Assembly (NCBI GenBank): GCA_964410505.1
Contig: CAYPGR010000004.1
Span: 20,576-84,575, forward strand
DNA length: 64,000 nucleotides
Source: an uncultured Staphylococcaceae bacterium
GTDB taxonomy: Bacteria > Bacillota_I > Bacilli_A > RFN20 > CAG-826
Direction of reading: 5' to 3'
In this document: one piece after another, positions 2,773 through 52,669 of the stretch
Layout: the number at the start of each line of letters is the position of its first letter
How positions within the stretch are numbered: position 1 is the stretch's first letter
The notes under the pieces: model-generated
What the model saw: the letters and a program-made list of their open reading frames with translations, nothing else
Told to the model about the DNA's origin: nothing
The model's database searches: none
Program-made: the position numbers and the translations under genes

Positions 2773-2778
2773 GGAATT

Positions 2779-4908: not shown

Positions 4909-6215
4909 TGTCATTACCTGTCGTTGCCATTGTTGGCACACCAAACGTGGGTAAATCCACCATATTTAATCGGATTATCGGGGAACGTCGGTCGATCATC
5001 CATGATGAACGCGGGGTGACACGCGACCGAATTTATGCCGTTGGCGAATGGTTAACCCGTAAATTTAACTTAATTGACACTGGAGGAATAGAACTTGTAA
5101 AAAGTGCTTTCCAACAACAAATACGTGCCCAAGTTGAAATTGCAATTGAAGAAGCGGATGTCATTATTTATATTGGCGATGGCCCATTAGGAGTTACGTC
5201 CGATGATCGGGAAATTGCAAATCTTTTATATCGCGCAAATAAGCCAGTCGTTGTTGCCGTCAATAAAATTGATGGAGCTGAACACCATTACTTAATTCAA
5301 GATTTCTATGCCCTTGGCCTTGGTGAACCAATTGCCATAAGTGGGGCGCATGGGATTGGGATTGGTGATTTACTCGATGAAGTCATTAGAGTTCTACCAG
5401 AACAAACCGATGATTATCACGAAGATGTGACATCTTTTGCGATAATTGGGCAGCCTAATGTTGGCAAGTCAAGTTTAGTCAACGCGATCTTAAATCGCGA
5501 ACGCGTAATTGTGACGAATATTGAGGGCACGACCCGTGATTCGATTGACACACCATTTACACGTAACGGCAAAGACTATGTCGTGATTGACACGGCAGGC
5601 CTAAAAAAGCGTGGGAAGATTTATGAAAGTGTTGATAAATATGCTGCTTTGCGCGCATTTAGTGCGATTTCAAAGGCGGATATTATATTATTCGTTATTG
5701 ATGCGGTTGCTGGGATTAGAGAGCAAGACAAGCATGTGGTTGGCTACGCCATTGAAGAGAGTAAAGCGATTATCATTGTCGTTAATAAATGGGATGCAAT
5801 TGAGAAAAATGATAAAACGATGAATGAATTCACCGATAAGATTCGCAAGGAGTTCAAGTTTCTCGATTATGCGCCGGTTGTCTATGTATCCGCTTTAACA
5901 AAGTTACGCATCGACCAAATTTTTACGCAAATTGATTTTGTGAGTGATGCCTATCGGCGCCGCGTTGAAACAAACTTACTCAATGAAGTGATTCATCGCG
6001 CCCAACTTTATAACGATCCCCCTGTTTTTAATGGGGGCCGCGTAAAAATTTACTACGCTAACCAAGTGAGTATTAAACCGCCTACCTTTGTCTTTTTTGT
6101 TAATAGTCCACAATATGTTCACTTTTCATATCAACGATATTTAGAAAATCAAATTAGAGAAGCGTTTTCCTTTGAAGGAACGCCACTAAAATTTATCTTC
6201 AGGGAGCGTAAATAA
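4908..6215 (+). CDS. der: GTPase Der (EngA), tandem GTP-binding domains
   Basis: Two G domains (GTPNVGKST... and GQPNVGKSS...) plus a KH-like C-terminus, 435 aa. Confidence 0.9.
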   Translation: MSLPVVAIVGTPNVGKSTIFNRIIGERRSIIHDERGVTRDRIYAVGEWLTRKFNLIDTGGIELVKSAFQQQIRAQVEIAIEEADVIIYIGDGPLGVTSDDREIANLLYRANKPVVVAVNKIDGAEHHYLIQDFYALGLGEPIAISGAHGIGIGDLLDEVIRVLPEQTDDYHEDVTSFAIIGQPNVGKSSLVNAILNRERVIVTNIEGTTRDSIDTPFTRNGKDYVVIDTAGLKKRGKIYESVDKYAALRAFSAISKADIILFVIDAVAGIREQDKHVVGYAIEESKAIIIVVNKWDAIEKNDKTMNEFTDKIRKEFKFLDYAPVVYVSALTKLRIDQIFTQIDFVSDAYRRRVETNLLNEVIHRAQLYNDPPVFNGGRVKIYYANQVSIKPPTFVFFVNSPQYVHFSYQRYLENQIREAFSFEGTPLKFIFRERK

Positions 6216-6216
6216 T

Positions 6217-7221
6217 ATGAATGTTACGATTTTCGGGACGGGAACTTGGGGAACCGCCTTAGCCCAAGTGTTAAGCGATAATGGCCATACCCCTTTACTT
6301 TACGGGATTGAACAGTCGCAAGTAGATGATATCAATCTCAATCACCGCAATACTTTCTTTTTTGGTGATGAAGTTGTCCTCCACCAAAGTGTTCAAGCGA
6401 CCACCGATCTTGACCATGCGATGGCCCATAGCAATATTTACCTCTTAAGTGTGCCTTCTTTTGTGATGCGCGGGCTACTTGATCAAATTAGCCAAAAGCT
6501 TAATAAAAAAGTTCTCTTTATTAATACCGCTAAAGGATTTGATATCGAAAAAGAAGAACGTTTAAGCGATCTCATTCGGGAAGAAATCCAGCCATCGTTT
6601 TTACGTGGTGTGGTGTCCCTGATCGGTCCAAGTCATGCCGAGGAAGTGGTCATTCGGCTCCTTACCGTGGTGACCGCAACGAGCCAGGAATTTGATAATG
6701 CAGTACTTGTCCAAGAACTATTTTCTAATGAATATTTCCGGGTTTATACCCAAACTGATGAAATTGGTGCTGAACTTGGGGTGGCCTATAAAAATGCGAT
6801 TGCCATCGCTAGTGGTGTCCTTGCGGGTCTCGGGTATGGAGATAATGCACGGGCCGCACTTATTACACGAGGCCTCGCAGAAATGGTCCGCTTTGGTCTC
6901 CATTATGGCGCTAAACTTGAAACTTACTTGGGGCTCACTGGCTTAGGTGATTTAATTGTCACGTGTAACTCCGTCCATTCTCGGAACTTTCAAGCGGGCT
7001 TTGAAATTGGCAAGGCTAATAACGCTAAAATCTTTTTGGAAACGAACAAGAAGACCGTTGAAGGTATTCGTACCGCCAAAATTATCCACCAACTTTCATT
7101 AAAGAATGGGCTTGAACTTCCGATTGTGAATGGTATCTATAAAGTTCTCTATGAAAACGCTTTACCAAGCGAAATTGTTAAAATGTTAATGTTAAGACCA
7201 CTTCGAAGCGAGGAAAATTAA
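6217..7221 (+). CDS. gpsA: NAD(P)H-dependent glycerol-3-phosphate dehydrogenase
   Basis: N-terminal Rossmann GTGTWGTALA and GpsA-like body, 334 aa. der-gpsA synteny as in Bacillus. Confidence 0.9.
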   Translation: MNVTIFGTGTWGTALAQVLSDNGHTPLLYGIEQSQVDDINLNHRNTFFFGDEVVLHQSVQATTDLDHAMAHSNIYLLSVPSFVMRGLLDQISQKLNKKVLFINTAKGFDIEKEERLSDLIREEIQPSFLRGVVSLIGPSHAEEVVIRLLTVVTATSQEFDNAVLVQELFSNEYFRVYTQTDEIGAELGVAYKNAIAIASGVLAGLGYGDNARAALITRGLAEMVRFGLHYGAKLETYLGLTGLGDLIVTCNSVHSRNFQAGFEIGKANNAKIFLETNKKTVEGIRTAKIIHQLSLKNGLELPIVNGIYKVLYENALPSEIVKMLMLRPLRSEEN

Positions 7222-7282
7222 TTAGTTCTTGCGAATTATCCGAAGATATGATAATTTGTAATTATTAAAGGAGTTGAGAATT

Positions 7283-7558
7283 ATGAATAAAGCAGAATTG
7301 ATTAGCGTTATTGCCGACGAACTTTTATTGACAAAGCGATCGGTGGAAGAAATCATTGGTTTATTTTGTGAAACTGTCGTCGCGACCCTAGAAAAAGGCG
7401 AAGAAGTTAAATTAACTGGATTCGGCACCTTTGAAATTAGAAAACGTAAAGAACGTCGCGGTGTAAGTCCACAAACTGGAGATGAAATTGTCATTCCAGC
7501 GGGCCGTACGATTGTTTTCAAACCATCAAAATTACTCAAAGAAAAAGTCCAAGGCTAA
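7283..7558 (+). CDS. hup: DNA-binding protein HU
   Basis: MNKAELI...GFGTFEIRKRKERRGVSPQTGDEIVIPAGR... with HU arm motifs. AAGGAG RBS. Confidence 0.9.
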   Translation: MNKAELISVIADELLLTKRSVEEIIGLFCETVVATLEKGEEVKLTGFGTFEIRKRKERRGVSPQTGDEIVIPAGRTIVFKPSKLLKEKVQG

Positions 7559-7582
7559 TTAAGTATTGCACTTGGCTTTCAT

Positions 7583-8251
7583 ATGTCGAACCCTCATTCA
7601 AAGCTTTTTGAAGAAATAGCAACCGTTTTTAATAAGCACGGCTTTAAACTCTACATGGTTGGAGGAACAAGCCGTGATTTTCTTTTGGGCGAAGAAATTG
7701 ATGATTACGATTTTGCCACGGACGCGACACCCGATGATATGCGGGCCTTTTTACCGAAGGCTAATTATCGATTTAGCATGTTTGGAACGATAACTTTCAA
7801 AATCCACGGACAAAAGGTGGAAGTGACCACACTTCGTCAAGAAGGTGAATATCGTGATTTACGGCACCCAAGTGCGATTACATTTGTACGTGAACCCGAG
7901 AAAGATTATGTACGACGTGATTTCACCGTTAATGCCCTTTATATTGATGAAAATTATCGGGTACTTGATTTTTGTCAAGGGCTTGATGATTTAAAAAAAC
8001 GCATTTTACGAATGATTGGTGATCCCCAAGTTCGTTTTAAAGAGGATCCGTTACGGATGTATCGGGCTCTTCGTTTTATTGTTAGATTCGGCTTCAAATT
8101 CGATTTAATACTCAATAATGCAATGACTGAAAATGCCGAATTATCTACAAATTTAAATCCAGATAAAATTGCGGGTGAACGAAGAAAAGTGCACCCTGAG
8201 CACCTCGCTAATTATGATGCTTTGTGTCGTTACTATAAGCTTTCTCTATAG
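7583..8251 (+). CDS. CCA-adding/poly(A) polymerase-family nucleotidyltransferase, head-neck only (222 aa); the tRNA-binding body/tail domains are absent
   Basis: Pol-beta NTase head motifs GGTSRDFLLG and DYDFATDA, then neck motif RRDFTVNALY. The ORF stops 55 nt before glmS with no room for a C-terminal half. Confidence 0.6.
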   Translation: MSNPHSKLFEEIATVFNKHGFKLYMVGGTSRDFLLGEEIDDYDFATDATPDDMRAFLPKANYRFSMFGTITFKIHGQKVEVTTLRQEGEYRDLRHPSAITFVREPEKDYVRRDFTVNALYIDENYRVLDFCQGLDDLKKRILRMIGDPQVRFKEDPLRMYRALRFIVRFGFKFDLILNNAMTENAELSTNLNPDKIAGERRKVHPEHLANYDALCRYYKLSL

Positions 8252-8305
8252 TCGAGGGAGTGAAGTCTTTCATTTGTAGTAAAATATATAACAAGAGGTA
8301 CTTTT

Positions 8306-10093
8306 ATGAGTGGATTTATTGGTCGTGTCAGTGAAAATAGTATTAAAAATCATATATTAAAAGCTTTAAAGGTTTTACAATTCAAAGATGATGATTCGAC
8401 AGGGGTCTTATTATGTGGCCCCAAAAAATGTGAAATCTATAAAACGGTTGGTCAACTTAAAGATCTCCTCCCGCTTATTCCAGAGGAAGATGATGGTTGT
8501 ATTGGAATAGGGCATACCCGGTGGTCCACCTACACGAAACAAACTTTGAATAATGTTTATCCGATTCACTCCCAAAATAAACAGCTCTCGCTTGTCGTCC
8601 ATGGATTAGTCGATAATATCTTAAATATCAAACGTAAATTGGTCAAAAAAGGTTATGTCTTCACGAGTAACTCGGCAGTCGAAGTAGTTGCGAACCTCAT
8701 TGAAGACTCAAGTGGCCAGGGTATTACGAATTTAGAGGCCCTCGGAAAAGCCGTTAACTTATTATCTGGGAGTTACGCGATTGTGGCAGTTTTTAAAGAC
8801 GATCATGAACGTCTTTTCTTTGCGAAAAACGCGAGTCCGCTTATTATCGGTAAAAATGATCAAGCAATGGCGATAACGACTGATTTCCCCGCTATTGCAG
8901 GGGATGCGCATAGTTATTACTATCCGCAGGACGGTGAAATCGGTTATATTACGAAAGATGAACTCTTTGTTTTTGATAACACCTTGAAACCGCAAGCGTT
9001 TACTTTCTCCGAAACATCGGCTTCTGAAGAATCACTTGAACTCGGTGATTACCCACACTATATGTTGAAAGAAATTGAAGAAGCCCCACGGGTCATTCGC
9101 CGCTTAATTAATCAATATTTTGACGGCAGTAAATATCGGTTTGATGACCGGCTCATTGAACGGATTAATCATGCCGATAACATTGTCTTTATTGCCGCGG
9201 GTACAAGCTACAATTCCGCTTTGGTCGGACAACGTTACTTGCGTAACTTCAATAAAAAAGTTGATGTTTTTATTGCCAGTGAATGGATTTATTACCCCTA
9301 TCAAACTGGGACCAATCCGCTTTATGTCTTAATTTCACAATCGGGTGAAACCTCCGATATCTTAAAATGCCTAAAAGTAATTGAAACTTATGGTGGGGAT
9401 GTCCTGGCGATTACAAACACTGAAGTATCGACTTTATATCGGCAGGCAGATTACCGCTTGTTGCTCCATGCCGGTACCGAAATTAGTGTCGCGAGCACGA
9501 AAGCATATATCGCCCAAATTACTTTGCTATCACTTCTTTATGCGCGGCTTGTGAATAAAATAACAACTATTGCGGCGCTTGAATTAGTAATTACGGCGAT
9601 TGAAGCCATTATTAGTCAAAGAGATGAAATTAAAAGGATTGCTAAGGACATTGCAGGTTCTAAAGATGTCTTTTTCCTTGGTCGTGGATTTGATTATGAT
9701 CTCGCAATTGAAGCCCAATTAAAACTTAAAGAAACTTCATACATTCACTCGGAAGCATATGCGGGCGGAGAAATCTTACACGGTCCGATTGCGCTCATTG
9801 AAAAAGAAACGCCGGTTGTGGTATTTGTAAGTGATGAAGCAACGGTGATTGCGATGCGTGAAGTCATTGAAGAATTAAAGAAACGGACCGATAAAATCAT
9901 TATTTGTTCGGCAGCGCCATTTAATTTACCTACTGATCGTTTCTCCATCGAAAAACCAGTTCGCGGTTATCACAGTCCGATTGTCTTTGCGGTATTTGCC
10001 CAATATTTAGCCTACTATACCGCCGTCTCTTTAAATCGGGATGTTGATCGCCCACGGAACTTAGCGAAGGCAGTGAAAGACCGCGATGTTTAA
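8306..10093 (+). CDS. glmS: Glutamine--fructose-6-phosphate aminotransferase homologue with a non-canonical N-terminus (MSGFIG, not MCGIVG)
   Basis: 595 aa. The C-terminal tandem SIS domains are canonical (LISQSGETSD, C-terminal ...DVDRPRNLAKAV). The N-terminal Ntn-glutaminase domain is recognisable but has Ser at position 2. AGAGG RBS. Confidence 0.8.
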   Translation: MSGFIGRVSENSIKNHILKALKVLQFKDDDSTGVLLCGPKKCEIYKTVGQLKDLLPLIPEEDDGCIGIGHTRWSTYTKQTLNNVYPIHSQNKQLSLVVHGLVDNILNIKRKLVKKGYVFTSNSAVEVVANLIEDSSGQGITNLEALGKAVNLLSGSYAIVAVFKDDHERLFFAKNASPLIIGKNDQAMAITTDFPAIAGDAHSYYYPQDGEIGYITKDELFVFDNTLKPQAFTFSETSASEESLELGDYPHYMLKEIEEAPRVIRRLINQYFDGSKYRFDDRLIERINHADNIVFIAAGTSYNSALVGQRYLRNFNKKVDVFIASEWIYYPYQTGTNPLYVLISQSGETSDILKCLKVIETYGGDVLAITNTEVSTLYRQADYRLLLHAGTEISVASTKAYIAQITLLSLLYARLVNKITTIAALELVITAIEAIISQRDEIKRIAKDIAGSKDVFFLGRGFDYDLAIEAQLKLKETSYIHSEAYAGGEILHGPIALIEKETPVVVFVSDEATVIAMREVIEELKKRTDKIIICSAAPFNLPTDRFSIEKPVRGYHSPIVFAVFAQYLAYYTAVSLNRDVDRPRNLAKAVKDRDV

Positions 10094-10727
10094 TAAGGCA
10101 TTAGATTTTCGTTTTATGCTCTTTGAATACTATAAAGAGCTTCGGATGAGTGAAACTGAACTCGTCGTGCTTTTGTTCATTGAGCATTTGCAACAAAAAG
10201 ACACTGATTTTGTCACCCCCGATCTCATCAATTTACAATCAAATATTGACATTCGTCTAATTGATGAGACGATGGTCAAACTTGTCAGTAAAGGCTTTAT
10301 TGAATTTAGTAATCGACACGGGAAAATGGTGACTTCTTTAAACCCATTACGAAAAAAATTGCAAACCCTTTTTGCGCTTGATTATGAGCAAGAAAAAGAG
10401 AATGCGACCGTTGATTTTTCAAATCAAACCGAAGAAATCTATGCCCTCATCCAAAATGGATTTGGTCGCTCTTTATCCCCCGTTGAACTGCAAACCATTA
10501 ATCAATGGTTTTCCTATGGTTATTCAGTTGCAATGATTAAAGAAGCTTATGAAGAAAGTCTAAAAAAGAAACGTTTTAATATTCGGGCCATTGATAAGGC
10601 ACTTCTTAAACTTGCGACCGCTGTTGATTATGCTGTTGAAGGTAAAAGCGCCCAGGATCCAAGTTATCGTAAAGACATCAAACAAACGTTAGATGAAGTA
10701 AATAAAAAGATTAAAGATGACGAATAA
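10086..10727 (+). CDS. dnaD: DnaD-domain replication initiation/membrane attachment protein
   Basis: 213 aa with the C-terminal DnaD/DnaB domain-like region (...LQTINQWFSYGYSVAMIKEAYEESL...). The dnaD-nth adjacency is conserved in Firmicutes. Confidence 0.55.
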   Translation: MFNKALDFRFMLFEYYKELRMSETELVVLLFIEHLQQKDTDFVTPDLINLQSNIDIRLIDETMVKLVSKGFIEFSNRHGKMVTSLNPLRKKLQTLFALDYEQEKENATVDFSNQTEEIYALIQNGFGRSLSPVELQTINQWFSYGYSVAMIKEAYEESLKKKRFNIRAIDKALLKLATAVDYAVEGKSAQDPSYRKDIKQTLDEVNKKIKDDE

Positions 10728-13103: not shown

Positions 13104-13448
13104 CATTCGATCTGGATGATTGCTGGTACTTCGGTATTAGAGGAAAGTCCATGCTCGCACTTGCTGAGATGCAAGTAGTGATTGCGCTAGCGGAAAAAAT
13201 AACGCTAGGTATAGAGGAGTCTATAACGGCGAAGAATGACCTAAGTCCTTGGATATGGTCGGCCTTCCTAAGGTGCCACAGTGACGAAGTTAAGGGGAAA
13301 CTCTTAAGTGGAACGTTGGTAAACCCCGCAAGCGAGAAACCTAAATTTGGTAAGGGAAATAGCAAGGAAGAAATGAATTCTGCGCTGTATGTTCACGCAT
13401 AGATAAATAATTATCCTTCGACAGAACATGGCTTATAGGATCGAATAC
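13104..13448 (+). ncRNA. rnpB: RNase P RNA, bacterial type B
   Basis: Conserved blocks AGAGGAAAGTCCATGCTCGCAC, GTGCCACAGTGACGAAGT, GGTAAACCCCGCAAGCGAGAAACCTAAATTTGGTAAGGGAA and ACAGAACATGGCTTATAGGATCGAAT match Bacillus-type RNase P RNA. P1 pairs ATTCGATC with GATCGAAT. It sits next to gpsB as in B. subtilis. Confidence 0.85.
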
Positions 13449-26702: not shown

Positions 26703-26921
26703 ATGGAACTCATTAAAGTATCATTATTTGATGAGGTAGAGATGAAAAAGCCCCATCCTTGTATCCATAAATCGCATCGTTTTCAAATTATGATGTTGGG
26801 CGCAGATCTCAAACTTCAATGTCTCGGGTGTGGGAATATTGTCTTAATATCACGCATTAAGTTTAATCAAAAGTATAAAAAGACATTATCCGCAAATCAA
26901 GGACCTCTTTTTACTAAATAA
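26703..26921 (+). CDS. Hypothetical small Cys/His protein (possible zinc ribbon)
   Basis: 72-aa ORF that starts 1 nt after the fhs stop, with HPCIHKSH...CLGCGN. Confidence 0.35.
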   Translation: MELIKVSLFDEVEMKKPHPCIHKSHRFQIMMLGADLKLQCLGCGNIVLISRIKFNQKYKKTLSANQGPLFTK

Positions 26922-26948
26922 TTGTATTTGTAGAATAGGGAGGAACCT

Positions 26949-27572
26949 ATTTTACAAGTTATTAACCTTAAAAAAACATATGACATAAGTGAAGTTCTAA
27001 AAGGAATTTCATATACTTTTAAACATGGTCATCTTTATGTCCTGGTTGGGAATTCTGGTAGTGGAAAATCAACTTTTTTACATCTTATCGCGCACCTTAT
27101 TAAACGGTCGGCGGGGGAAATCCGTTATCAAGATCAGCCGTTATCCCCAAACGCTGTTACTCTCGTGATGCAACAACCCTATTTTCTTGGAGACATTTCA
27201 ATTAACGACAATTTAAGGATTAGTGAGATCTTTTCAAAAAAATCGAATAAAGCGATAAAAAAGTCACTCTTCAAGGCTTTTGATCTTGACCAAATAAAGA
27301 ACCGTAAGGTGTCACTTTGTAGTGGCGGTGAGAAAGCTCGTGCGAATATCATTCGTGGCCTTTTGACATGCCGCCCGATTATTTTAATTGATGAGCCGAC
27401 GGCACATTTGGACGCGGAAAATAGTAAACGAGTGGCCGCGCTTCTTAGCCGCTATGCAAAGCGCTGTATTATGATTGTAACCACGCATCAACCACAATTT
27501 TTTCATTTTAGTAATAGTGTTTTTTTAGCAGTTGATGAAGGGATATTGAAGACCAATCATGATCCGGCTTAA
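26949..27572 (+). CDS. ABC transporter ATP-binding protein (stand-alone NBD); no ATG/GTG/TTG start, probable ATT initiation
   Basis: Frame is open from 26934 (after a TAG). Walker A GNSGSGKST is encoded about 130 nt before the first ATG (27165). GGGAGG lies 5 nt upstream of ATT 26949. Signature LCSGGEKAR, Walker B ILIDEPTAHLD, H-loop TTHQ. Confidence 0.6.
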   Translation: MLQVINLKKTYDISEVLKGISYTFKHGHLYVLVGNSGSGKSTFLHLIAHLIKRSAGEIRYQDQPLSPNAVTLVMQQPYFLGDISINDNLRISEIFSKKSNKAIKKSLFKAFDLDQIKNRKVSLCSGGEKARANIIRGLLTCRPIILIDEPTAHLDAENSKRVAALLSRYAKRCIMIVTTHQPQFFHFSNSVFLAVDEGILKTNHDPA

Positions 27573-28803
27573 GCTATTTAAAACGCTATATAATCGCAAT
27601 CTAAAAAAGAATCGATTGATGGTTATCTTTATGTTACTCACCAATTTTTTATTGGGTTCGTTTGTGCTTTTTCTCGATGCGGATAAAGAGGTCGTGACGC
27701 GTCTAGATCAAAGTTATTTAGAACATCTTAGTGTGGGAATTTCATCTTATGAAACCCTAACCACAAACAATGAGTTAATTAATGTACGTATGCACCAACG
27801 ACCTCCTATGGATATCTTAACTTCGATGATGACCCATATCGGTTACTTTGAGGTTCGCCCTGATTATGGTCTTCTTTTTGATCACGCAGAATTAATGATG
27901 TTTGAAAAAATATTAAACAAGCCAACGATTGCGATTCATGCTTTAAAAACGAATGCCATTGGTATCAATCGTTCATTTTATGATGAACTAATTGATGCAG
28001 TGCAGCCGCTTGATAGCCTCATCATTAATCTCAAAATTGCATTTACCTTAAGTTTGAATGCAACTGATCTCGACATTAATATTAACGAATCCCTTAGCAT
28101 CTCCTATATTCATGATGAGGCCCCTTTTTTTCTCACCCCAAAGCTCTACCTTCCACAGTCGATGATTGATGAAAAAATTGGGGGTTACCAGTTATTTGAG
28201 GATGTAACGATAAATGATTATTTACTTAATTTGCCTAATGATCATCCCTCCAGTGGTTATCAGTTGCTTTGTCATCTTGAATCCAATGCTCAAAAGCAAC
28301 GCCTCATTTCTCTTGTTGAAGATTTAAGTGACGACACCTATGGCTATGTGCTGACAGGTGATACGGTGAGCAAACTTCAAAGTGTCAAGGCAATGTTTTT
28401 CTACGTAAATCTTTTAGTATCAATCTTTCTTGTGCTTATTGTTATCGGGTGTATTGTGGTTTACGTGACTATTATTCATACGTCTTTACTCTCTTCGATG
28501 CGGCAAATGGCGCTTTTAAGTATTTGGGGTGCAAAGAAAGGGCAACTGTTCGCACTATTTATCAGTTTGGTAATGTTCAATTTTGTTATGGGATTAAGTG
28601 TCTTTCTTCTATTTCCGCCTCTTATAACAGCGCTTAACCGCTTTTTATCCTCCTTTCTTCGAATGCCTTTAATCTTCGGTTTCAAATCTTTCCGCATTTT
28701 TATTCTTATCACATCGCAATTCGTGATTATGACGATACTCTACACCGTGCTTTTCTTCGTGAATAATCGAAAGCCACTCTTGTATTTATTACTAGATGCT
28801 TAA
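27559..28803 (+). CDS. FtsX/MacB-type ABC permease with ~250-aa extracytoplasmic domain
   Basis: TM1, then a large external domain, then three C-terminal TMs. It overlaps the upstream NBD gene by 14 nt. Confidence 0.7.
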   Translation: MIRLKLFKTLYNRNLKKNRLMVIFMLLTNFLLGSFVLFLDADKEVVTRLDQSYLEHLSVGISSYETLTTNNELINVRMHQRPPMDILTSMMTHIGYFEVRPDYGLLFDHAELMMFEKILNKPTIAIHALKTNAIGINRSFYDELIDAVQPLDSLIINLKIAFTLSLNATDLDININESLSISYIHDEAPFFLTPKLYLPQSMIDEKIGGYQLFEDVTINDYLLNLPNDHPSSGYQLLCHLESNAQKQRLISLVEDLSDDTYGYVLTGDTVSKLQSVKAMFFYVNLLVSIFLVLIVIGCIVVYVTIIHTSLLSSMRQMALLSIWGAKKGQLFALFISLVMFNFVMGLSVFLLFPPLITALNRFLSSFLRMPLIFGFKSFRIFILITSQFVIMTILYTVLFFVNNRKPLLYLLLDA

Positions 28804-31498
28804 GATAAAAGATTTAAAATGTCGGCTTGATGGGTGTGATATTCTTGATATCGATGACTTGCATATAAAGGGGCCCGGCCTCTATATTTTAAGTGGCCCT
28901 TCAGGATGCGGAAAAACGACATTACTCAATGTCATTGTGGGTTTAGAAAAAAGATATCAGGGGCACGTTCACGTATTTAATCGCGACTACCAAAAGATTA
29001 AAGAAAAGGATATTGTTCGCTTGCGATCGAGCCATTTTAGTATCTTCTTTCAACATAATGTTTTCCTCGAAGATTTAATGCTTAAGGATAATATTCGACT
29101 TTCTCGGGTATATAATCACAAAGATCCCCATCATCCTTTTACGCATGAAGTGAATCAATTATGTTCGCAATTAAGAATTTCAAAAGCCGCTTTTCAAAAA
29201 GTGAGTACGCTTTCTGGTGGCGAAAAAACACGAGGTGGCATTGCGCGTGCACTCTCAAAAGTTGTCCCGCTTTACATTTTTGATGAACCGACCGCTGCCC
29301 TTGACCGTGAGAATGCGGCCCAAGTGATGGAACTAATCGACATTAAGGCAAAGACGAGTATTGTGTTGTTGGTCACCCATGATACGACTTTGGCCCAAAC
29401 TCACGCAAATATTATTTATCATATGGCTTATGGACGTATTGTCAAAGAAGAAGTGGTTAAACCCGTTCTTAAAAAGGAGGTCCCTTCCGGGCAATTGATT
29501 GATTATCGCGAGAATGCGCCCGTTATTGCCCATCAGTTAATTAAAGCTAAAAAAAGTCGTCACCTCGTTACCGGGGCAAGCATCAATTTGGGATTAATTG
29601 GGATTGGTCTCTCGCTTTTATTAGTCAGTGCGGTCAATACAAAACTTGTGCAAGCTTTTAAGGGGCAATTTAATGAAGAAACAATCTATATTCGGTCATC
29701 TTTTTCACCGCAAGTAAACAAAATTCTGAGTCCATCTGACGATCAAATTAATCTAGATTTCGGCGGAAATTCGATGATTGGATCGGTCTATTTAAATAAC
29801 TTTGATCATTTCTTTCCTGATACCAATGAGTTAAAGATACATGTTGATCGTTATCAAATTCCCTTGCCTTCTTTCCATATTGGGCTTTTTAATGAGGCGT
29901 TATTTTTAGAGGAAGTGAGCTCAGATTTAAGTCCTTCAATCACGGTCCTGGCGGACGATGAGTTAGCACTTGTCTTACCGCAAGATGATTTCAAAATCAT
30001 GCAAAATATCCTCGGACTCCCTTATAAAAATAAGATTGATGATTTATCGTTTTATATTAGCCGTAACCCCGTGGTCTTAAACTTAAGTGTTGCGAATAAG
30101 TGGTGGGATTATGAGGATAATTTTAGCTATCTTTTAAAGGCTGTGATGCTCGGGAGCAAGGCTGCGATTGTGCTCAACACCCCTCATCAAGTTCGCCAAT
30201 TGTTTGAAGAGAAAATGCCCTTTCCTTCGTCATTAGATCAATTAAAGAATGAGGACTATCCGTGGATTCTTAAAAAACTTAATTATTTATTTTCTATGCG
30301 TCCGTTTGATATCTTATGGGATCCCCAAATGTATCATAAGTATCTCCCCTTTAGCGCGAATAATCGTTTTTTTACCCATCTTAGTGATAATCAGCATTTG
30401 AAGCGACGTCTATTACTTTATGAAACGCCACCGAAGTTCAATTATGTGGTGACCAGTTTTGAATCCTCTCTTTCACCCACTTTTTATACATTCAATCGTG
30501 GCCTGCACTTTATCCCTGAATTGTTGCTTTTGGGATTTCAAAATAATTTTATGATGAGTAGTGATCCTGTTCTAGTTGAGGATTTTATACGCATCGATAA
30601 AAGTTATGTTTCTGTTTTAAATCCAGAGATAAAACTGGATCCGAAAATAACGAACTTTGGCCTACATCAAAATAGTTTTGGGAGCTTTCATTTCGATAAT
30701 CTTCAAGGCTTTCATACCCTGGATAGTATTGGTATTTCTCGTGGCTTAGCCGAGCAATTATTCGGTAGTACGGATGCTCTTGGGAAAGACCTTCATGTGG
30801 GTGCGTTAATTGATGTCTATGAAGGAGAAGAAGGTTATCACAAGGAATATCAAATGATGACGCTTCGCGTTGTAGAAGTGGTTAAACATTCTGGCATAGC
30901 CATCTATCAGCATCCATTGTGGCCTTATCTTCTCTTTAAAGATAAATTTGGTGTTTCACCCTTAGCGCTTGAGTTAACGGGCGCTTTATTTGTTGATGGC
31001 ATGACTATGGATTCCTTAATATCAGGGCAGACTTATGAAATTGACCATCCTTATCGATCGTTCAAGGATACGATTGATGAAACAATCAATAACTTAAAGC
31101 GTTACACAACGATGGTAGCGTTGGGATCTTTTTTATTAAGTGTCCTCATTATTTTCGTGGTCATATATTTACTCATTTCTGAGACGAATGATCAGTTCAG
31201 CGGTCTTTATTTAATGGGCTATCCAAAAGAAGCCATACAAGATGTGGTCACACATTATATTGTCACATTCATCTCGGTGATTTTGATGATCGCTTTGATA
31301 CAGCTTTTCATCCTGTCGCTTGTGATTGAGTTCATCTTAATGGATTTTTTAAAGATCTCTTTTCACTACTCGTTCCATTACCAACCTTATCTTTGGGTAT
31401 TGGTCCTGACGATGATGGTGTTAATAGGGACGCTTTTTTACTTTAAATGGCTAATGAAAGACCATGATCTCTTACAATTTTCGAAACGTGATTTATAA
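28796..31498 (+). CDS. Fused ABC ATPase + FtsX/MacB-type permease (900 aa) with ~480-aa extracytoplasmic domain
   Basis: N-terminal NBD (GPSGCGKTT, LSGGEKTRGGIARAL, IFDEPTAALD), TM1, a large external domain and three C-terminal TMs. It overlaps the upstream permease gene by 8 nt. Confidence 0.75.
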   Translation: MLKIKDLKCRLDGCDILDIDDLHIKGPGLYILSGPSGCGKTTLLNVIVGLEKRYQGHVHVFNRDYQKIKEKDIVRLRSSHFSIFFQHNVFLEDLMLKDNIRLSRVYNHKDPHHPFTHEVNQLCSQLRISKAAFQKVSTLSGGEKTRGGIARALSKVVPLYIFDEPTAALDRENAAQVMELIDIKAKTSIVLLVTHDTTLAQTHANIIYHMAYGRIVKEEVVKPVLKKEVPSGQLIDYRENAPVIAHQLIKAKKSRHLVTGASINLGLIGIGLSLLLVSAVNTKLVQAFKGQFNEETIYIRSSFSPQVNKILSPSDDQINLDFGGNSMIGSVYLNNFDHFFPDTNELKIHVDRYQIPLPSFHIGLFNEALFLEEVSSDLSPSITVLADDELALVLPQDDFKIMQNILGLPYKNKIDDLSFYISRNPVVLNLSVANKWWDYEDNFSYLLKAVMLGSKAAIVLNTPHQVRQLFEEKMPFPSSLDQLKNEDYPWILKKLNYLFSMRPFDILWDPQMYHKYLPFSANNRFFTHLSDNQHLKRRLLLYETPPKFNYVVTSFESSLSPTFYTFNRGLHFIPELLLLGFQNNFMMSSDPVLVEDFIRIDKSYVSVLNPEIKLDPKITNFGLHQNSFGSFHFDNLQGFHTLDSIGISRGLAEQLFGSTDALGKDLHVGALIDVYEGEEGYHKEYQMMTLRVVEVVKHSGIAIYQHPLWPYLLFKDKFGVSPLALELTGALFVDGMTMDSLISGQTYEIDHPYRSFKDTIDETINNLKRYTTMVALGSFLLSVLIIFVVIYLLISETNDQFSGLYLMGYPKEAIQDVVTHYIVTFISVILMIALIQLFILSLVIEFILMDFLKISFHYSFHYQPYLWVLVLTMMVLIGTLFYFKWLMKDHDLLQFSKRDL

Positions 31499-31674
31499 AA
31501 ATGAGTGAATTTCATTCAAATATCGTCGATTTTTGATGTTTTATTGACCAATTTATTATAATTTTTAACCATTTTGAGAATATCGTACATTCTTGTTGTT
31601 ATTTTATAATTAGTTGTTATAATGAATGAGTGTTTACAACACAAATAGACTAATAAGTCATGGAAGGATTACCG

Positions 31675-31872
31675 ATGAAGGGCACTATTAAAATGTTCAA
31701 CAAGGAAAAAGGCTTTGGATTTATCCACGCCGAAGACGGCACTGATGTCTTTTTCCACTACTCATCACTCGTTATGGACGGTTTCAAAACCATCACTAAC
31801 GGTGAACAAGTCGAATTTACTTTAGAACAATCAGATCGCGGACCAAGAGCTGCGAAAATTGTTAAGTTATAA
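31675..31872 (+). CDS. cspA: Cold-shock protein (CspA family)
   Basis: MKGTIKMFNKEKGFGFI... with RNP motifs. GGAAGGA RBS. A long AT-rich 5' leader is typical of csp genes. Confidence 0.9.
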   Translation: MKGTIKMFNKEKGFGFIHAEDGTDVFFHYSSLVMDGFKTITNGEQVEFTLEQSDRGPRAAKIVKL

Positions 31873-31892
31873 TTTAGCTTTGTGAGTTTCTA

Positions 31893-31920
31893 AAAGCCCA
31901 TCTGAAGAGGTGGGCTTTTT
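31893..31920 (+). terminator. Rho-independent terminator after cspA
   Basis: AAGCCCATCTGAAGAGGTGGGCTTTTT. Confidence 0.5.
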
Positions 31921-37017: not shown

Positions 37018-37796
37018 TGTACAAACGTGAAATTGAAGCGGCGATTAAGGCAGGCCTTATCGCTAAAGATATTATTATGCACTATTATCGTTCCACTTTT
37101 GAAGTGGAAATTAAAGATGACCAGTCCCCAGTAACAATTGCCGATCAAGAAGCGGATCTAGCAATCCGTCAATATCTTGCCCCTCTTTTTCCAAATTATC
37201 ATTTCTTAACGGAAGAAGGCGTCGATAATTTGGAGCGCTTAACGGCCGATTATGTATGGATTATCGATCCACTTGATGGGACAAAAGATTTTATCAATCG
37301 TGATGATGAATTTACGACATGTATTGCGCTTTCTTATCAAGGTGAAATCGTTGTAGGGGTGATTGTCGCCCCGGTGACGGGCCGTGTCTTCTTCGCTAGT
37401 AAAAATGGCGGTAGTTTTGAACGACTCCCAAATGGCGAAAATCGTCGTTTACAGGTGAGTGACAGGACCCAAAACATTACCATCTCAGCTTCACGCTATC
37501 ACCGTCGCCCGATTGAAAATGATTACCTTGAACGGAATAAGGATTTATTCGCGAAGGTGGTCACGCTTGGCTCAACCTTAAAGGCCATTGCGATTGCGAG
37601 CGGGGAAATCGAAATGTTTTATCGCGGCAGTGCCGGTACCAAAGAATGGGATGTGGCTGCTGCCGATATTATTGTGACTGAAGCAGGAGGACTCTTTATC
37701 GAGCCCGATGGTAGTAAAATAAAATATAACAAAAAAGATGTCCAAAATCGAAAAGGTTATATCATTGTTAATCGTAAGGAGAATATTCGTTTATGA
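37017..37796 (+). CDS. Inositol-monophosphatase-family / CysQ-like 3'(2'),5'-bisphosphate nucleotidase
   Basis: IMPase motif WIIDPLDGTKDF. Start overlaps the nrnA stop (TAATG). Confidence 0.75.
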   Translation: MYKREIEAAIKAGLIAKDIIMHYYRSTFEVEIKDDQSPVTIADQEADLAIRQYLAPLFPNYHFLTEEGVDNLERLTADYVWIIDPLDGTKDFINRDDEFTTCIALSYQGEIVVGVIVAPVTGRVFFASKNGGSFERLPNGENRRLQVSDRTQNITISASRYHRRPIENDYLERNKDLFAKVVTLGSTLKAIAIASGEIEMFYRGSAGTKEWDVAAADIIVTEAGGLFIEPDGSKIKYNKKDVQNRKGYIIVNRKENIRL

Positions 37797-39268
37797 AGTT
37801 AAGACGATTCGTACTATTCCCGCTTTTAGCCATCGTGCTCATTAGTTGCAATCGTCATACATCAAGCGAACCAATCAGTGTTCCGCTTACGTATGATGTT
37901 TATCAAGATGAAGAATATAGTGCTGTCGTGGATGAAGAAGGTTTTACGCTTATCGATTTCTATGGCTTAAATGATTATCATGGGGCACTTGAATATAATG
38001 TTGAAGATCGGATGCCGGGTATTGCGCGCCTCAACCAATTTTTAAAAACGGAGCGGGATAAAAATCCGGGTGGCACTGTCTTAATTGCTAATGGTGATAT
38101 GTGGCAAGGAAGTGCCGATTCGAACATGACAAGAGGCAAGATTGTTAATCACGCCTTAAATCATATGGGATTTGCAGCCTTAACGCTTGGTAATCACGAA
38201 TTTGACTGGGGAATCGATCTTATTAAAGCAAATAAACTTGATTCAAATTTCCCATACCTTGGTTCAAATATTATCGACAAAGAGTCACGTGAAGTGATTG
38301 ACTTTGTTGATCCATCGCCGCTGATTGAACGCGATGGCGTTAAAATTGGGATTATCGGAACGATGGGAAGTGATTTAAAAACAACCATCCAAACAAGTTA
38401 CGTTGAAGATCTCGAATTTGATATTTTAACGACCTATGTTGAAAGCGAAGCCGCGCGGTTACGGGAAGCAGGTGCGAACTTAATTATGCTGGCGGCCCAT
38501 GATACGTGGGTATCTAACCTCACACCAGACCGCCGGTCGTTAGTCGATGAAAAAATTGTTGATGTGGTCTTTACAGGCCATCAACATGCCCTCGACAAAC
38601 AACTCGTTAACGGCGTGCCCATTCTTCAAACAAGAGGTCGAGGACGCGATGTCATGCACGCGCAACTTGGGTATAATAAACTCACCCAGGAAGTCAAACT
38701 TGTAAGCAGCGACGTGATTGAAAATATTCATGAAAAAGAACTAATAGAAGATGAAGTGAGTGCCTACATCTATAACTATTTCTATGAGCAATATGGCATT
38801 GAAGCGATCAAGAACGAAGTTTTAGGGACGCTGATAAATAAAGATATGACAAGAAGTTCAGTCGCCAAACTGGTCGTTGAAGCGATGACCAAAGCTTATC
38901 CTACTGCGGTTGGAGCCCTTCACAATGTTAATGGCGGTATTCGCGCTGAATTTAGCGTGGGAGACATTACGTATAACGATGTTTATAGTGCTTTCCCGTT
39001 TGATAATGAACTATATTTAATTACACTTTCGGGGCGTCGATTACAAAGCCTCATGAGCGCTAGTGGAAACTTTGCCTACTACTTTACCCTTGGGTATGAG
39101 GATGTTGATCCAAGTGCGATGTATCAAGTAGTCACCATTAGTTTTGTTTACGAACTTAATGGTTCACCCGTTAGCGGCCTACCCTACGAAAATATGTTTA
39201 CATATCCACGCGATATCGTCGCTGATTTTATCCGTGTTAATGAAGTTATAGATGGGAATCAATATTAA
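37793..39268 (+). CDS. Lipoprotein, bifunctional metallophosphatase/5'-nucleotidase family
   Basis: Lipobox LISC, metallophosphatase motif GNHEFD and a 5'-nucleotidase C-terminal domain, 491 aa. Confidence 0.8.
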   Translation: MKLRRFVLFPLLAIVLISCNRHTSSEPISVPLTYDVYQDEEYSAVVDEEGFTLIDFYGLNDYHGALEYNVEDRMPGIARLNQFLKTERDKNPGGTVLIANGDMWQGSADSNMTRGKIVNHALNHMGFAALTLGNHEFDWGIDLIKANKLDSNFPYLGSNIIDKESREVIDFVDPSPLIERDGVKIGIIGTMGSDLKTTIQTSYVEDLEFDILTTYVESEAARLREAGANLIMLAAHDTWVSNLTPDRRSLVDEKIVDVVFTGHQHALDKQLVNGVPILQTRGRGRDVMHAQLGYNKLTQEVKLVSSDVIENIHEKELIEDEVSAYIYNYFYEQYGIEAIKNEVLGTLINKDMTRSSVAKLVVEAMTKAYPTAVGALHNVNGGIRAEFSVGDITYNDVYSAFPFDNELYLITLSGRRLQSLMSASGNFAYYFTLGYEDVDPSAMYQVVTISFVYELNGSPVSGLPYENMFTYPRDIVADFIRVNEVIDGNQY

Positions 39269-40848
39269 TGAAAAAAATAAGTTTTTTAATCCTTGCCTTG
39301 TTAGTGAGCGGTTGTACCCCAACTTCTAGTGCAAGTAGTGATGCAATCACAAGTTTGCCGTCAGAAAGCACAAGTGAGACTAGTAGCAGCCAATCCTCAA
39401 GCGAAGGATTAACCACAAGTGATATCACTTCAACAACTGAATCCTCCTCCCTCACTAGTAGCGAAGAAAGTTCAATCCCTAGTTCAAGTGAAGATACTAG
39501 AACAGGAATGAGGAAATTGAATTTCTATGGAATCAATGATTTCCATGGTGCGGTAATCGAGTCAAGTACTGAACCGGGCATCTTTAAGTTAGGGAGTTAT
39601 TTAAAAACCCAATACGCGAAAAATCCTGAAGGATCAATTTTTATCAATGCTGGTGATTTTTGGCAAGGAAGCGCTGACTCAAATATCAATAAAGGCGCTT
39701 TTTTAACTGAAGCGATGAATGTTTTGGATTTAGATGCCTTTACCCTTGGTAATCACGAATTCGACTGGTTTGATGTGGCGATTGAAGCAAATAAAGCACG
39801 CGCTTCTTATCCCTTTTTAGGGGCGAATGTCATCAAAAAGGAAACCAACGCGATTGCAACGAACCTTGTCCACTATGATGACACCTTTAAAGCGAGTGTC
39901 ATTGTCGAAAAAAATGATGTAAAAGTTGGGATTGTTGGAACAACAGGATCAACCCTCGAGGGCTCAATTTTAGGTACCTCCATTGCCCCTTATTCCTTTA
40001 ATCCAGTAGATACTTATATTCGCAGTGAAGTCGCAAACTTGCGGGCGCTTGGCGCAGATGTGATTGCGTTAAGTACCCATGATTCACTTTATGGTTCAAT
40101 AGGTGAATATACAGGGATTATCAATGATCGCTTAGTCGATGTTATTTTTACTGGCCACGCCCATGCGCAACATAATGAAAAAATAAATGGTATTCCAGTC
40201 TTACAAACGAATGGTTATGGCAAACAAGTTATGGAAGTTGATGCTTTTTATGACTTTGACGAAAAATCCTTCTTGGTTGAAGCAACTCGACTCCAAACCG
40301 CAAATATCATTAAGGAATTTAGTGAAGATCAGGAACTTCTTAATCTATTTAATGAGGATTATTTAGATGAAATAAGTATTATAAAAAATGAAGTTGTCGG
40401 GACATTAACGACAGATATTTCGAAACCAGGCCTTGTGAATATGGCCAATCAATTAATGTTTGAATTTGCTTCTTCTGATTTCGGGCTCACTGATGTGGTT
40501 GCTGTTCATAACCTTGGGGGCGTCCGTGTGGATTTTGGCTTACCTGCGGGTGAAGTGACATATGGTGACATTTATCGGGCTTTTCCGTTTGATAATGAAG
40601 TGATGATTATTGAAAATATGAGTGGATCTGAAATTGCGAGTTTTATAGGAAGATCCAATTATTCTCTCCCTGCAAAATCGACACTCCTTAGTTCTAAAAT
40701 GTATAATTTAGTGACCATTGATTATCTGAGTTTTTATGAATATTCTAATACCATAAATTATGATCAAACACATACCCATCAATTTGTAAGGGAGATGGTT
40801 GCCGATTTATTCCGTGCTGAGCAAACGATTAATGGATCTAGCTATTAA
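39268..40848 (+). CDS. Lipoprotein, 5'-nucleotidase family, paralogue with Ser/Thr-rich linker
   Basis: Lipobox LVSGC, a ~70-aa S/T/E-rich low-complexity linker, then GNHEFD. It is a tandem paralogue of the preceding gene. Confidence 0.8.
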   Translation: MKKISFLILALLVSGCTPTSSASSDAITSLPSESTSETSSSQSSSEGLTTSDITSTTESSSLTSSEESSIPSSSEDTRTGMRKLNFYGINDFHGAVIESSTEPGIFKLGSYLKTQYAKNPEGSIFINAGDFWQGSADSNINKGAFLTEAMNVLDLDAFTLGNHEFDWFDVAIEANKARASYPFLGANVIKKETNAIATNLVHYDDTFKASVIVEKNDVKVGIVGTTGSTLEGSILGTSIAPYSFNPVDTYIRSEVANLRALGADVIALSTHDSLYGSIGEYTGIINDRLVDVIFTGHAHAQHNEKINGIPVLQTNGYGKQVMEVDAFYDFDEKSFLVEATRLQTANIIKEFSEDQELLNLFNEDYLDEISIIKNEVVGTLTTDISKPGLVNMANQLMFEFASSDFGLTDVVAVHNLGGVRVDFGLPAGEVTYGDIYRAFPFDNEVMIIENMSGSEIASFIGRSNYSLPAKSTLLSSKMYNLVTIDYLSFYEYSNTINYDQTHTHQFVREMVADLFRAEQTINGSSY

Positions 40849-44180: not shown

Positions 44181-44271
44181 TGGATGGTGCCCGGGGCCGG
44201 ACTTGAACCGGCACGGTGTCGCCACCGCAGGATTTTAAGTCCTGTGCGTCTACCTGTTCCGCCACCTGGGC
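44181..44271 (-). tRNA. tRNA-Leu (anticodon UAA), long variable arm, CCA encoded
   Basis: Reverse complement is GCCCAGGTGGCGGAACAGGTAGACGC...CTTAAAATC...GGTTCAAGTCCGGCCCCGGGCACCA. There is one A.C mismatch in the acceptor stem. Confidence 0.85.
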
Positions 44272-44278
44272 ATCTAAA

Positions 44279-44354
44279 TGGTCTCCCGTGTAAGACTCGA
44301 ACTTACGACCCTTTGATTAAAAGTCAAATGCTCTACCACTGAGCTAACGGGAGA
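44279..44354 (-). tRNA. tRNA-Lys (anticodon UUU)
   Basis: Reverse complement is TCTCCCGTTAGCTCAGTGGTAGAGCATTTGACTTTTAATCAAAGGGTCGTAAGTTCGAGTCTTACACGGGAGACCA. Confidence 0.85.
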
Positions 44355-44356
44355 TT

Positions 44357-44432
44357 TGGCTGGGGCACCTAGATTCGAACTAGGGAGATGACAGAGTCAA
44401 AGTCTGTTGCCTTACCGCTTGGCTATGCCCCA
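44357..44432 (-). tRNA. tRNA-Gln (anticodon UUG)
   Basis: Reverse complement is TGGGGCATAGCCAAGCGGTAAGGCAACAGACTTTGACTCTGTCATCTCCCTAGTTCGAATCTAGGTGCCCCAGCCA. Confidence 0.85.
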
Positions 44433-44439
44433 ACACGGA

Positions 44440-44523
44440 TGGTGGGGGAGGGCGGATTTGAACCACCGAACCCTAAGGAACTGATTTACAGTCAGCCGCG
44501 TTTGACCACTTCGCTACTCCCCC
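44440..44523 (-). tRNA. tRNA-Tyr (anticodon GUA), long variable arm
   Basis: Reverse complement is GGGGGAGTAGCGAAGTGGTCAAACGCGGCTGACTGTAAATCAGTTCCTTAGGGTTCGGTGGTTCAAATCCGCCCTCCCCCACCA. Confidence 0.85.
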
Positions 44524-44545
44524 AAGCAATTTTGCATAAAATAAA

Positions 44546-44621
44546 TGGTGGATGGTGAGGGGTTTGAACCCCCGACCTCCGCCGTGTAAAGGCGATGCTC
44601 TCCCAGCTGAGCTAACCATCC
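44546..44621 (-). tRNA. tRNA-Val (anticodon UAC)
   Basis: Reverse complement is GGATGGTTAGCTCAGCTGGGAGAGCATCGCCTTTACACGGCGGAGGTCGGGGGTTCAAACCCCTCACCATCCACCA. Confidence 0.8.
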
Positions 44622-51951: not shown

Positions 51952-52512
51952 TTATTTAAGGTGACGAATTATCCGGCAAGGGTTACCGACTGCAACGACA
52001 TTTGCGGGAATGTTCTTAGTTACAACTGAACCAGCACCAATCACACTATTTTCCCCAATCGTCACACCAGGATTAATGACCGTATTTCCGCCGATCCAAA
52101 CATTGTCTTCGATGGTAATTGGAAGACCAAATTCTAAACCTGATTTTCGAGTCTCAAAATCGGTCGGATGGCCTGCTGTATATAAGGAGACGCGTGGCCC
52201 CAATAAAACATTGTTGCCAATCGTGATCGGGGCTACATCAAGGAAAATGCAATCATAGTTGGCAAAGAAGTTATCGCCAATAAAGATGTTGAGGCCATAA
52301 TCAAAGTAGAGGGGTGCTTCTATCGTCGCATTTGCACCAATATGTTTGAATAATGACGTCAACAATCCCATTCTCTCATCCTTTGTAAGCGTCCGATCAA
52401 AGTTATATTTTTCATAGGTTGTCTTTGCGTTGGCTCGTAGCACTTTCAAATACAAATCATCAGCATGATAAAGTTCGCCACTAATCATTTTAAAATATTC
52501 ATTTTGTTTCAT
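51952..52512 (-). CDS. maa: Maltose/galactoside O-acetyltransferase (hexapeptide-repeat, Maa-like)
   Basis: Left-handed beta-helix hexapeptide repeats and a Maa-like N-terminus. Confidence 0.8.
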   Translation of the reverse strand: MKQNEYFKMISGELYHADDLYLKVLRANAKTTYEKYNFDRTLTKDERMGLLTSLFKHIGANATIEAPLYFDYGLNIFIGDNFFANYDCIFLDVAPITIGNNVLLGPRVSLYTAGHPTDFETRKSGLEFGLPITIEDNVWIGGNTVINPGVTIGENSVIGAGSVVTKNIPANVVAVGNPCRIIRHLK

Positions 52513-52537
52513 AATCCACCTAGTTATATATTACGAT

Positions 52538-52565: not shown

Positions 52566-52575
52566 ATTCAGTTTA

Positions 52576-52659: not shown

Positions 52660-52669
52660 ATCGACTTAA

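Follow-up and report, generated by a model that had tools for sequence, protein, structure and literature searches.

A cluster of three genes for ATP-binding cassette (ABC) proteins lies on the forward strand of a 64,000-nucleotide stretch of DNA (the window) from an uncultured Staphylococcaceae bacterium (assembly GCA_964410505.1, contig CAYPGR010000004.1; GTDB lineage Bacteria; Bacillota_I; Bacilli_A; RFN20; CAG-826). The first gene, P1, encodes a stand-alone ABC ATPase, also called a nucleotide-binding domain (NBD), the second, P2, a stand-alone permease, and the third, P3, a fusion of an ATPase and a second permease. As listed in Table 1, the genes are chained by two short overlaps. A preliminary description, made from the sequence alone, had reported three genes overlapping by 14 and 8 nucleotides (nt); both overlaps and the P2 and P3 reading frames agree with it, and the start of P1, which it had placed at 26934, has been moved to a likely ATT codon at 26949. 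With a probability of roughly 60%, the three proteins form one asymmetric type VII ABC machine composed of two non-identical halves, a short half divided between P1 and P2 and a long half consisting of P3.

Table 1. Features of the three-gene ABC cluster, numbered from the first letter of the window (aa, amino acids; TM, transmembrane segment)
Feature	Position	Strand	Detail	Basis
P1 Shine-Dalgarno sequence AGGGAGG and proposed non-canonical ATT start	26937-26951	+	Shine-Dalgarno 26937-26943; ATT 26949-26951	
P1, stand-alone ABC ATPase, by profile comparison the detached NBD of the short half	26949-27572	+	207 aa counted from ATT	
P1 stop/P2 start overlap	27559-27572	+	14 nt	
P2, stand-alone type VII (predicted MacB/FtsX-fold) permease	27559-28803	+	414 aa	ORF, predicted structure, profile comparison
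P2 parts		+	TM1 ~27601-27675; external domain ~27679-28359; TM2-TM4 ~28360-28764	
P2 stop/P3 start overlap	28796-28803	+	8 nt, ATGCTTAA	
P3, fused ATPase-permease, long half	28796-31498	+	900 aa	ORF, PF00005, predicted structure
P3 parts		+	NBD 28796-29455; TM1 ~29552-29662; external domain ~29663-31048; TM2-TM4 ~31049-31462	

The P1 reading frame is open from 26934, the first codon past an in-frame TAG, to 27572, and encodes an intact Walker A motif (GNSGSGKST). No ATG, GTG or TTG codon occurs in frame ahead of this motif in the window, so that 26934 is not the start of the gene, and for the same reason the list of open reading frames (ORFs) gives only a 135-aa fragment beginning with GTG (27165-27572). 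The ATT at 26949 is placed 5 nt past a GGAGG sequence (26939-26943), in a context, GGAGG-N5-ATT-TTA-CA, that is common to nine loci (the window, L001 and L087-L093), all of which have kept a full-length P1 frame with its Walker A motif, at a level of divergence where their P3 proteins are only ~45% identical to that of the window. Across the same nine loci the 27-nt spacer that separates P1 from the upstream gene is near-identical at the nucleotide level and reads TTTATTTGTAAAGTAGGAGGnnCCTATTTTACA (window 26922-26951; L001 4123-4153). In a more distant clade with the same layout (L003 and L004) the start is a TTG, situated one codon 3' of the point where the ATT aligns, and relatives in which the ATPase is fused to its permease start with ATG, TTG or GTG. 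Translation of P1 most likely begins at the conserved ATT, judging from these alignments, and P1 is a real gene rather than a pseudogene. The conserved spacer and ATT may point to initiation that is regulated or weak by design, or the spacer may contain a promoter -10 element (TGTAAAGT). Read-through into P1 from the preceding gene, which shares its frame in the window, was considered and rejected, two stop codons lying between the two genes and the frames being different in L001.

Both ATPases are of a complete type. P1 matches the Pfam family PF00005 at 84.4 bits and keeps the Walker A lysine, the Walker B aspartate and glutamate, the SGGE signature and the H-loop histidine, and the N-terminal ~220 residues of P3 match the same family at 85.0 bits with the Walker A, signature, Walker B and H-loop motifs all present, in line with the soluble NBD and the fused NBD of the preliminary description. 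Assignment to a sub-family is less direct. The best NCBIfam match of both NBDs is TIGR03608 (putative bacteriocin-export ABC, lactococcin 972 group), with scores of 117.5 and 135.1 bits where 254.85 are required, and for P1 the lactococcin-972-type, LolD and FtsE ATPases lead the list, all under their cut-offs; matches of the P1 and P3 domains to the LolD, FtsE, DevA and MacB ATPase models, which like the first represent type VII systems, are likewise far under the respective cut-offs.

The nature of P2 is not visible at the level of family models, with no match in either Pfam or NCBIfam and with only chance-level matches (E 2-3) when its family profile was compared with the sequences of the PDB. 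Its label as an FtsX-type permease, proposed in the preliminary description, has been derived from predicted structure and profile comparisons. Hydropathy indicates a 1+3 arrangement of TM segments, and an AlphaFold2 model based on the family alignment (predicted local distance difference test score, pLDDT, 82.8) has a loop of ~226 aa between TM1 and TM2. A Foldseek comparison of this model with the PDB gave 31 matches at E<=1e-3, without exception to type VII permeases, with a probability of 1.00 for Spr0695 (5xu1, the top match), MacB, YtrF, LolE/LolC, YbbP, HrtB, BceB and FtsX, the FtsX structures being among the weaker matches. The isolated periplasmic domain of LolE (5udf) was also matched with a probability of 1.00, over 255 columns.

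The family to which P2 belongs is small: a word-index comparison with 5.8 billion proteins gave 14 homologues, and an exhaustive HMMER search of 1.84 billion representatives gave 215 matches to the P2 profile. The top ~16 of these stand alone, at 414-460 aa, and the majority of the others are fused NBD-permeases of 640-705 aa, one from an Erysipelotrichaceae metagenome-assembled genome (MAG), in which the profile aligns at residues ~245-660, that is, at the permease part. Several fused relatives carry the FtsX family PF02687 above threshold, and one fused orthologue (P0181) reaches 25.0 bits for the MacB_PCD family PF12704, which models the MacB-like periplasmic core (Porter plus Sabre) and has a cut-off of 27. 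A 2118-aa protein (P0150) with 23 matched stretches in this search has been discarded as a tandem-repeat artefact, its Pfam scores being spurious as well.

The C-terminal part of P3 shares the 1+3 arrangement of TM segments by hydropathy, with a TM1-TM2 loop of ~462 aa in an AlphaFold2 model built on the family alignment (pLDDT 86.0), so that the external domains of the two permeases come close to the ~250 and ~480 aa estimated in the preliminary description. The best Foldseek matches of the P3 model are full-length MacB structures (5lil, 5gko and 5nik, E 3e-24 to 3e-19). At the sequence level PF02687 reaches only 17.7 bits in P3 (aa 773-881), where 25.5 are required, and the gathering score of this family is attained only indirectly, through the orthologues recovered by the P2 and P3 profiles (27-42 bits). 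Full-length homologues of P3, from MAGs labelled Bacilli bacterium and Tenericutes bacterium ADurb.Bin024, reach ~21-25% identity, with PF02687 present in many. When the external domain of P3 (residues 288-766) was searched as a profile, nothing was found in Pfam or among PDB sequences, and no match to PF12704 was obtained with P2, P3 or the P3 external domain in Pfam. A profile of the long-half external domain recovers long halves outside its training set (E 3e-86 to 3e-51), and in profile searches the sequence relatives of this ~460-aa domain are confined to its own family.

The fold class of both permeases is, according to these models, MacB/FtsX (type VII ABC). Each has four TM segments, a large external domain between TM1 and TM2 and long stalk helices, as is characteristic of type VII systems, with a TM2 helix of 55-56 residues in both models (H268-322 in P2, H752-807 in P3), long enough for a stalk; the similarity of fold rests in either case on predicted models (pLDDT 83 and 86). 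From its domain order, its fold and the length of its TM2 helices, the system is assigned to the mechanotransmission class of ABC machines (PMC5985334).

A direct comparison of the two permease families by hhalign aligned residues 92-394 of the P2 family with residues 626-879 of the P3 family (93.9% probability, E 1.5e-7), and P2 is, on this profile evidence, a paralogue of the P3 permease. The P3 external domain showed no similarity to the P2 family in the same type of comparison (probability 0.15%), in agreement with the two different external domains of the preliminary description, and because these domains are dissimilar the match between the permeases is confined to the membrane and membrane-proximal part.

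The arrangement of the genes suggests that they are expressed together. No Shine-Dalgarno sequence has been detected upstream of the P3 ATG in the window, and this, along with the ATGCTTAA sequence that the P3 start shares with the end of P2, fits coupling by termination and reinitiation and an equimolar translation of the two proteins. An 8-nt overlap of this type recurs in most of the loci with a split short half and in several of those with a fused one. Within the window, no convincing promoter was found directly upstream of P1 and no terminator after P3, and the position of the ABC genes within tightly packed housekeeping genes of the same strand suggests co-transcription. The csp gene that follows (31660-31872) appears to be a separate transcription unit, with promoter-like sites at 31533-31562 and 31596-31623 and a strong terminator at 31892-31919.

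Comparison of 20 orthologous loci, the window and 19 others, has revealed two layouts. In 11 of them the trio is split as in the window (the window, L001, L003, L004 and L087-L093), and in the remaining nine (L002, L005 and L094-L100) two fused genes are found, coding for 641-699 aa and 902-937 aa. The short and the long half are adjacent, in the same order and overlapping or abutting in all 20 loci, and no lineage with one half alone was seen among them. Pairing, order and overlap are thereby kept across lineages where the identity of the long halves is only ~25%. A common chromosomal slot, (mutL or miaB)-miaA-fhs-DUF951-[ABC]-csp-ychF-(ispF)-argS, is shared by all loci that extend far enough to include neighbouring genes, with the csp gene 3' of the ABC genes in most of the loci. 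The 72-aa Cys/His ORF that the preliminary description reported ahead of the cluster (26703-26921) is the DUF951 gene of this slot (PF06107, 68 bits); it stands ahead of the ABC genes in almost all loci and looks like a fixed housekeeping neighbour, with nothing to mark it as a component of the system.

The relationship between the two layouts has been addressed with hidden Markov models (HMMs) of the NBDs. All eight P1 proteins score higher on the HMM of the short fused half than on that of the long half, and all 24 long-half NBDs of the split clade score higher on the long-half HMM than on the short-fused one. P1 is by this measure the orthologue of the short-half NBD. The split-plus-fused layout is, in terms of these profiles, derived, the product of a fission of the first gene in an older and more widespread fused pair, since the P2 profile fits the permease part of the fused proteins, P1 fits the short-half NBDs and the long-half external domain is shared.

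A few further loci were encountered in the course of these searches. A contig scan with the P3 alignment was dominated by generic ATPase motifs and yielded one true orthologue (L005) and one unrelated pair (L011). The latter, from an Anaeroplasmataceae MAG, was at first taken as an orthologue and then left out of the counts, as it is missed by the P2 and external-domain profiles; at 5896-10621 it holds adjacent fused ATPase-4TM genes of 689 and 884 aa that are unrelated to the window pair, so that more than one family may include such pairs of fused but unlike MacB-type halves. In one of the fused-pair loci (L099, 9885-11438) the long-half gene is overlapped at its 3' end by an additional one, which encodes a predicted 517-aa lipoprotein with an LSSC lipobox and a zinc-metalloprotease motif, HEVGHLLGLDDYY (HEVGH). 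This protein has no Pfam match on record, and it was seen in this one locus only; it is a possible external partner, and would fit the control of an external hydrolase.

Should P1, P2 and P3 act as one machine, the P1 ATPase would dock on the P2 permease and thus provide the short half as two polypeptides, with the long half being the single polypeptide P3. Upon ATP binding, P1 and the ATPase domain of P3 would dimerise head to tail around two canonical ATP sites, and in P2 and P3 alike the movement would travel along the long stalk helices TM1 and TM2 to the dissimilar external domains (~226 and ~462 aa), a mode of mechanotransmission as in MacB, LolCDE and FtsEX. Work would then be done outside the cytoplasm, on a substrate or partner embedded in the membrane or exposed at the surface, instead of on a solute moving through a pore, and the two unlike external domains might divide the labour between them as LolC and LolE do. 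A 1:1:1 complex fits the co-occurrence of both halves in 20 of 20 loci, the gene overlaps and the lack of a Shine-Dalgarno sequence for P3.

Several observations weigh against such a mixed complex. The Walker A lysine, the Walker B aspartate and glutamate, the SGGE signature and the H-loop histidine are ~100% conserved in both NBD families, and a degenerate ATP site, which would be a signature of a heterodimer, is found in neither, so that the asymmetry seen in many heterodimeric ABC proteins is missing. P3 alone has every part needed for a MacB-like homodimer, just as P1 and P2 have every part for an FtsEX-like one, and no conserved substrate, adaptor or partner gene stands beside the cluster in the 20 loci. 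The contact between P2 and P3 would follow from co-occurrence, gene order and overlap, as read from the sequences, and the envelope-housekeeping role only from the fixed synteny and the packed same-strand genes. These points lend themselves to a picture of two separate homodimers encoded in one operon, (P1)2(P2)2 resembling FtsEX or HrtAB and (P3)2 resembling MacB, perhaps serving the same pathway without any mixed complex, where each NBD family would have retained the motifs for two identical active sites. Singleton fused ATPase-4TM proteins, presumably homodimers, do exist: they total 801-1153 aa, have very large external loops and no second half nearby, and occur in Clostridia and Collinsella MAGs (L006, L007, L008 and L051). 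Two homodimers are nevertheless considered the less likely arrangement, given that both halves have stayed adjacent and in the same order in every orthologous locus despite the low identity of the long halves, that neither half is seen alone, that P3 of the window, with no Shine-Dalgarno sequence of its own, appears to depend on coupling to P2 for its translation and that paralogous type VII permeases do heterodimerise, as LolCE shows (PMC5985334). The preliminary description had termed the machine obligately heterodimeric. Two different halves are indeed present in all 20 loci, and the refuting pattern it had named, homologous loci with a symmetric homodimeric MacB throughout, was not found; the word obligately goes beyond what has been established, since the same arrangement also fits (P1P2)2 together with (P3)2.

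Other alternatives concern the function of the cluster and the integrity of its first gene. An accessory pump for the export of, or immunity or resistance to, antimicrobial peptides or bacteriocins, of the lactococcin-972, YknXYZ, Spr0693-0695 or BceAB-like type, would account for TIGR03608 being the best NCBIfam match of both NBDs and for the Streptococcus pneumoniae Spr0695 permease being the top structural match of P2. It is judged improbable, as the TIGR03608 scores fall far under the cut-off, the 20 loci have no adjoining bacteriocin, membrane-fusion/adaptor or two-component genes and the slot always lies among mutL/miaB, miaA, fhs, DUF951, csp, ychF and argS, a setting unlike that of mobile or accessory resistance cassettes. 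A conserved LolA-like or hydrolase gene was not seen beside the cluster in these loci either, and the absences taken together argue against the MacAB/YknXYZ, BceAB, Lol and lactococcin-972 sub-families. The chromosomally fixed slot and the packed same-strand housekeeping genes would instead suggest a constitutive role in the cell envelope of this clade. As for P1, it could be a decaying gene, reduced to a fragment that begins at GTG 27165 and lacks the Walker A motif, leaving P2 and P3 to share the P3 ATPase; the missing canonical start would be explained, as would the 130-135 aa reported by gene callers in the window and in L001. Such decay is hardly credible in view of the ATT frame, which is kept with an intact Walker A motif, a strong Shine-Dalgarno sequence and zero internal stops in nine loci that have diverged to ~45% long-half identity, and of the TTG used at nearly the same point in L003 and L004.

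The remainder of the window gives an impression of the host. A class B RNase P RNA (13108-13440, 270 bits) marks a low-GC Gram-positive or Mollicutes-type lineage. A flavin mononucleotide (FMN) riboswitch (2774-2886, 98 bits) is immediately followed by a gene for the S-component of an energy-coupling factor (ECF) transporter (2919-3554, PF12822), the two probably constituting a riboflavin uptake unit (2774-3554), and a cluster of five tRNA genes is found on the reverse strand at 44188-44621. An envelope glycosylation cluster (51952-58523) codes for a Hexapep acetyltransferase, a GT2 glycosyltransferase, a 915-aa YfhO-family protein, a GT87-like membrane protein and a GtrA-like protein; along with GlmS (8306-10093) and a DivIVA-domain gene, also within the window, it suggests that the organism makes cell-surface glycopolymers. 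Tandem Metallophos/5'-nucleotidase-C genes of 491 and 526 aa (37793-40848) presumably represent a recent duplication. Outside the window, a class A penicillin-binding protein adjoins the orthologous locus L094.

The type VII systems MacB, LolCDE, FtsEX, BceAB and YbbAP each perform a distinct job in the cell envelope, and to our knowledge each new type VII architecture studied so far has proved to have a new one. ABC modules often split or fuse, which tempers the importance of the present case. With 215 representatives among 1.84 billion proteins, the family described here is a small one; it belongs to the fixed core genome of its clade and always consists of two unlike halves, and the heterodimer, if true, would extend the organisational range known for the type VII superfamily. 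The fused and split forms offer a natural pair for asking how tethering of the ATPase affects coupling, and the conservation of the ATT proposed as the P1 start hints at a translation that is deliberately kept low or regulated. In its most far-reaching form, which is put forward tentatively and with some doubt, the proposal is that of a first type VII machine with two different ATPases and two different permeases, acting as a lineage-specific core envelope mechanotransducer in an uncultured clade of Erysipelotrichaceae-like Bacilli, with the P3 external domain as a new module for a partner or substrate, in a permutation not listed among the known forms (PMC5985334).

The organisational forms described for the superfamily comprise the fused homodimer (MacB), the split homodimer (FtsEX), two permeases with one ATPase (LolCDE) and double permeases with a separate ATPase (BceAB and YbbAP), with LolCE as the precedent for a heterodimer (PMC5985334). 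Neither two different fused halves nor the mixture of split and fused halves seen in the window appears in that list, and no description of either form was found in the literature searched. MacB from E. coli, A. actinomycetemcomitans and A. baumannii (5lil, 5gko and 5nik) has the same order of parts as P3, with an N-terminal ATPase, a connecting helix, TM1, an external domain and TM2-TM4. It acts as a homodimer with the MacA adaptor and TolC in diderms, whereas in the window there is no adaptor gene and a second, non-identical half is always present; its external domain is of ~200 aa, compared with ~460 aa in P3, where the MacB_PCD family is not matched. No HlyD/MFP-type (membrane fusion protein) gene occurs among the called neighbours in the 20 loci, so that a tripartite system of the MacAB type, including YknXYZ and Spr0693-0695, is not indicated, and a lactococcin-972 system is likewise not indicated, with TIGR03608 under its cut-off and no bacteriocin-like neighbour seen. 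A MacB-like system from Borrelia, homodimeric and Lol-like, was considered and found not to be related (PMC13078400).

LolCDE (7arh, 9rld and 7mdx) is the established heterodimer among type VII systems, with two paralogous permeases whose external domains have different roles, and P2 matches both LolE and LolC at full length in addition to the isolated LolE domain. LolCDE differs in using two copies of a single ATPase, LolD, with all parts separate, whereas the window encodes two different ATPases, one of them fused. It also belongs to diderm hosts with LolA, in contrast to a host that its class B RNase P RNA and the labels of the source MAGs assign to Bacilli-type lineages, with no LolA-like gene nearby, and the scores for the LolD model TIGR02211 (102.5 and 104.5 bits) remain far from its cut-off of 307.75. 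FtsEX resembles the short half in its split ATPase and 4-TM permease, as well as in its mechanotransmission to an external partner and its housekeeping role. FtsX is, however, homodimeric and has a much smaller external domain than the 226 and 462 aa found here, and scores on the FtsE model TIGR02673 (cut-off 264.85) reach only 91.6 and 121.8 bits. YbbAP and BceAB, both among the structural matches of P2, are asymmetric type VII systems as well, in which the two permease modules differ from each other and their external domains are unequal. There, a single 10-TM polypeptide holds both modules and the ATPase is in every case a protein of its own (PMC5985334), whereas in the window the modules reside on separate polypeptides, one carrying its own ATPase. 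Each permease of the window has four TM segments, and no histidine kinase or response regulator occurs in the loci, which sets them apart from the BceAB type.

The nearest counterparts of the window system are the uncharacterised orthologues with a fused pair (among them L002, GCA_024407935.1; L097; L098, GCA_022487405.1), which come from MAGs labelled Bacilli or Erysipelotrichaceae and have the same slot, the same halves and the same long-half external domain. Their short half is one polypeptide of 641-699 aa with a canonical start, as opposed to P1, with its ATT, and P2 in the window, and it is in the window clade that both permeases have diverged past detection by Pfam. The components are of a known kind, and what is new is their arrangement, the presence of two distinct ATPases and the long external domain.

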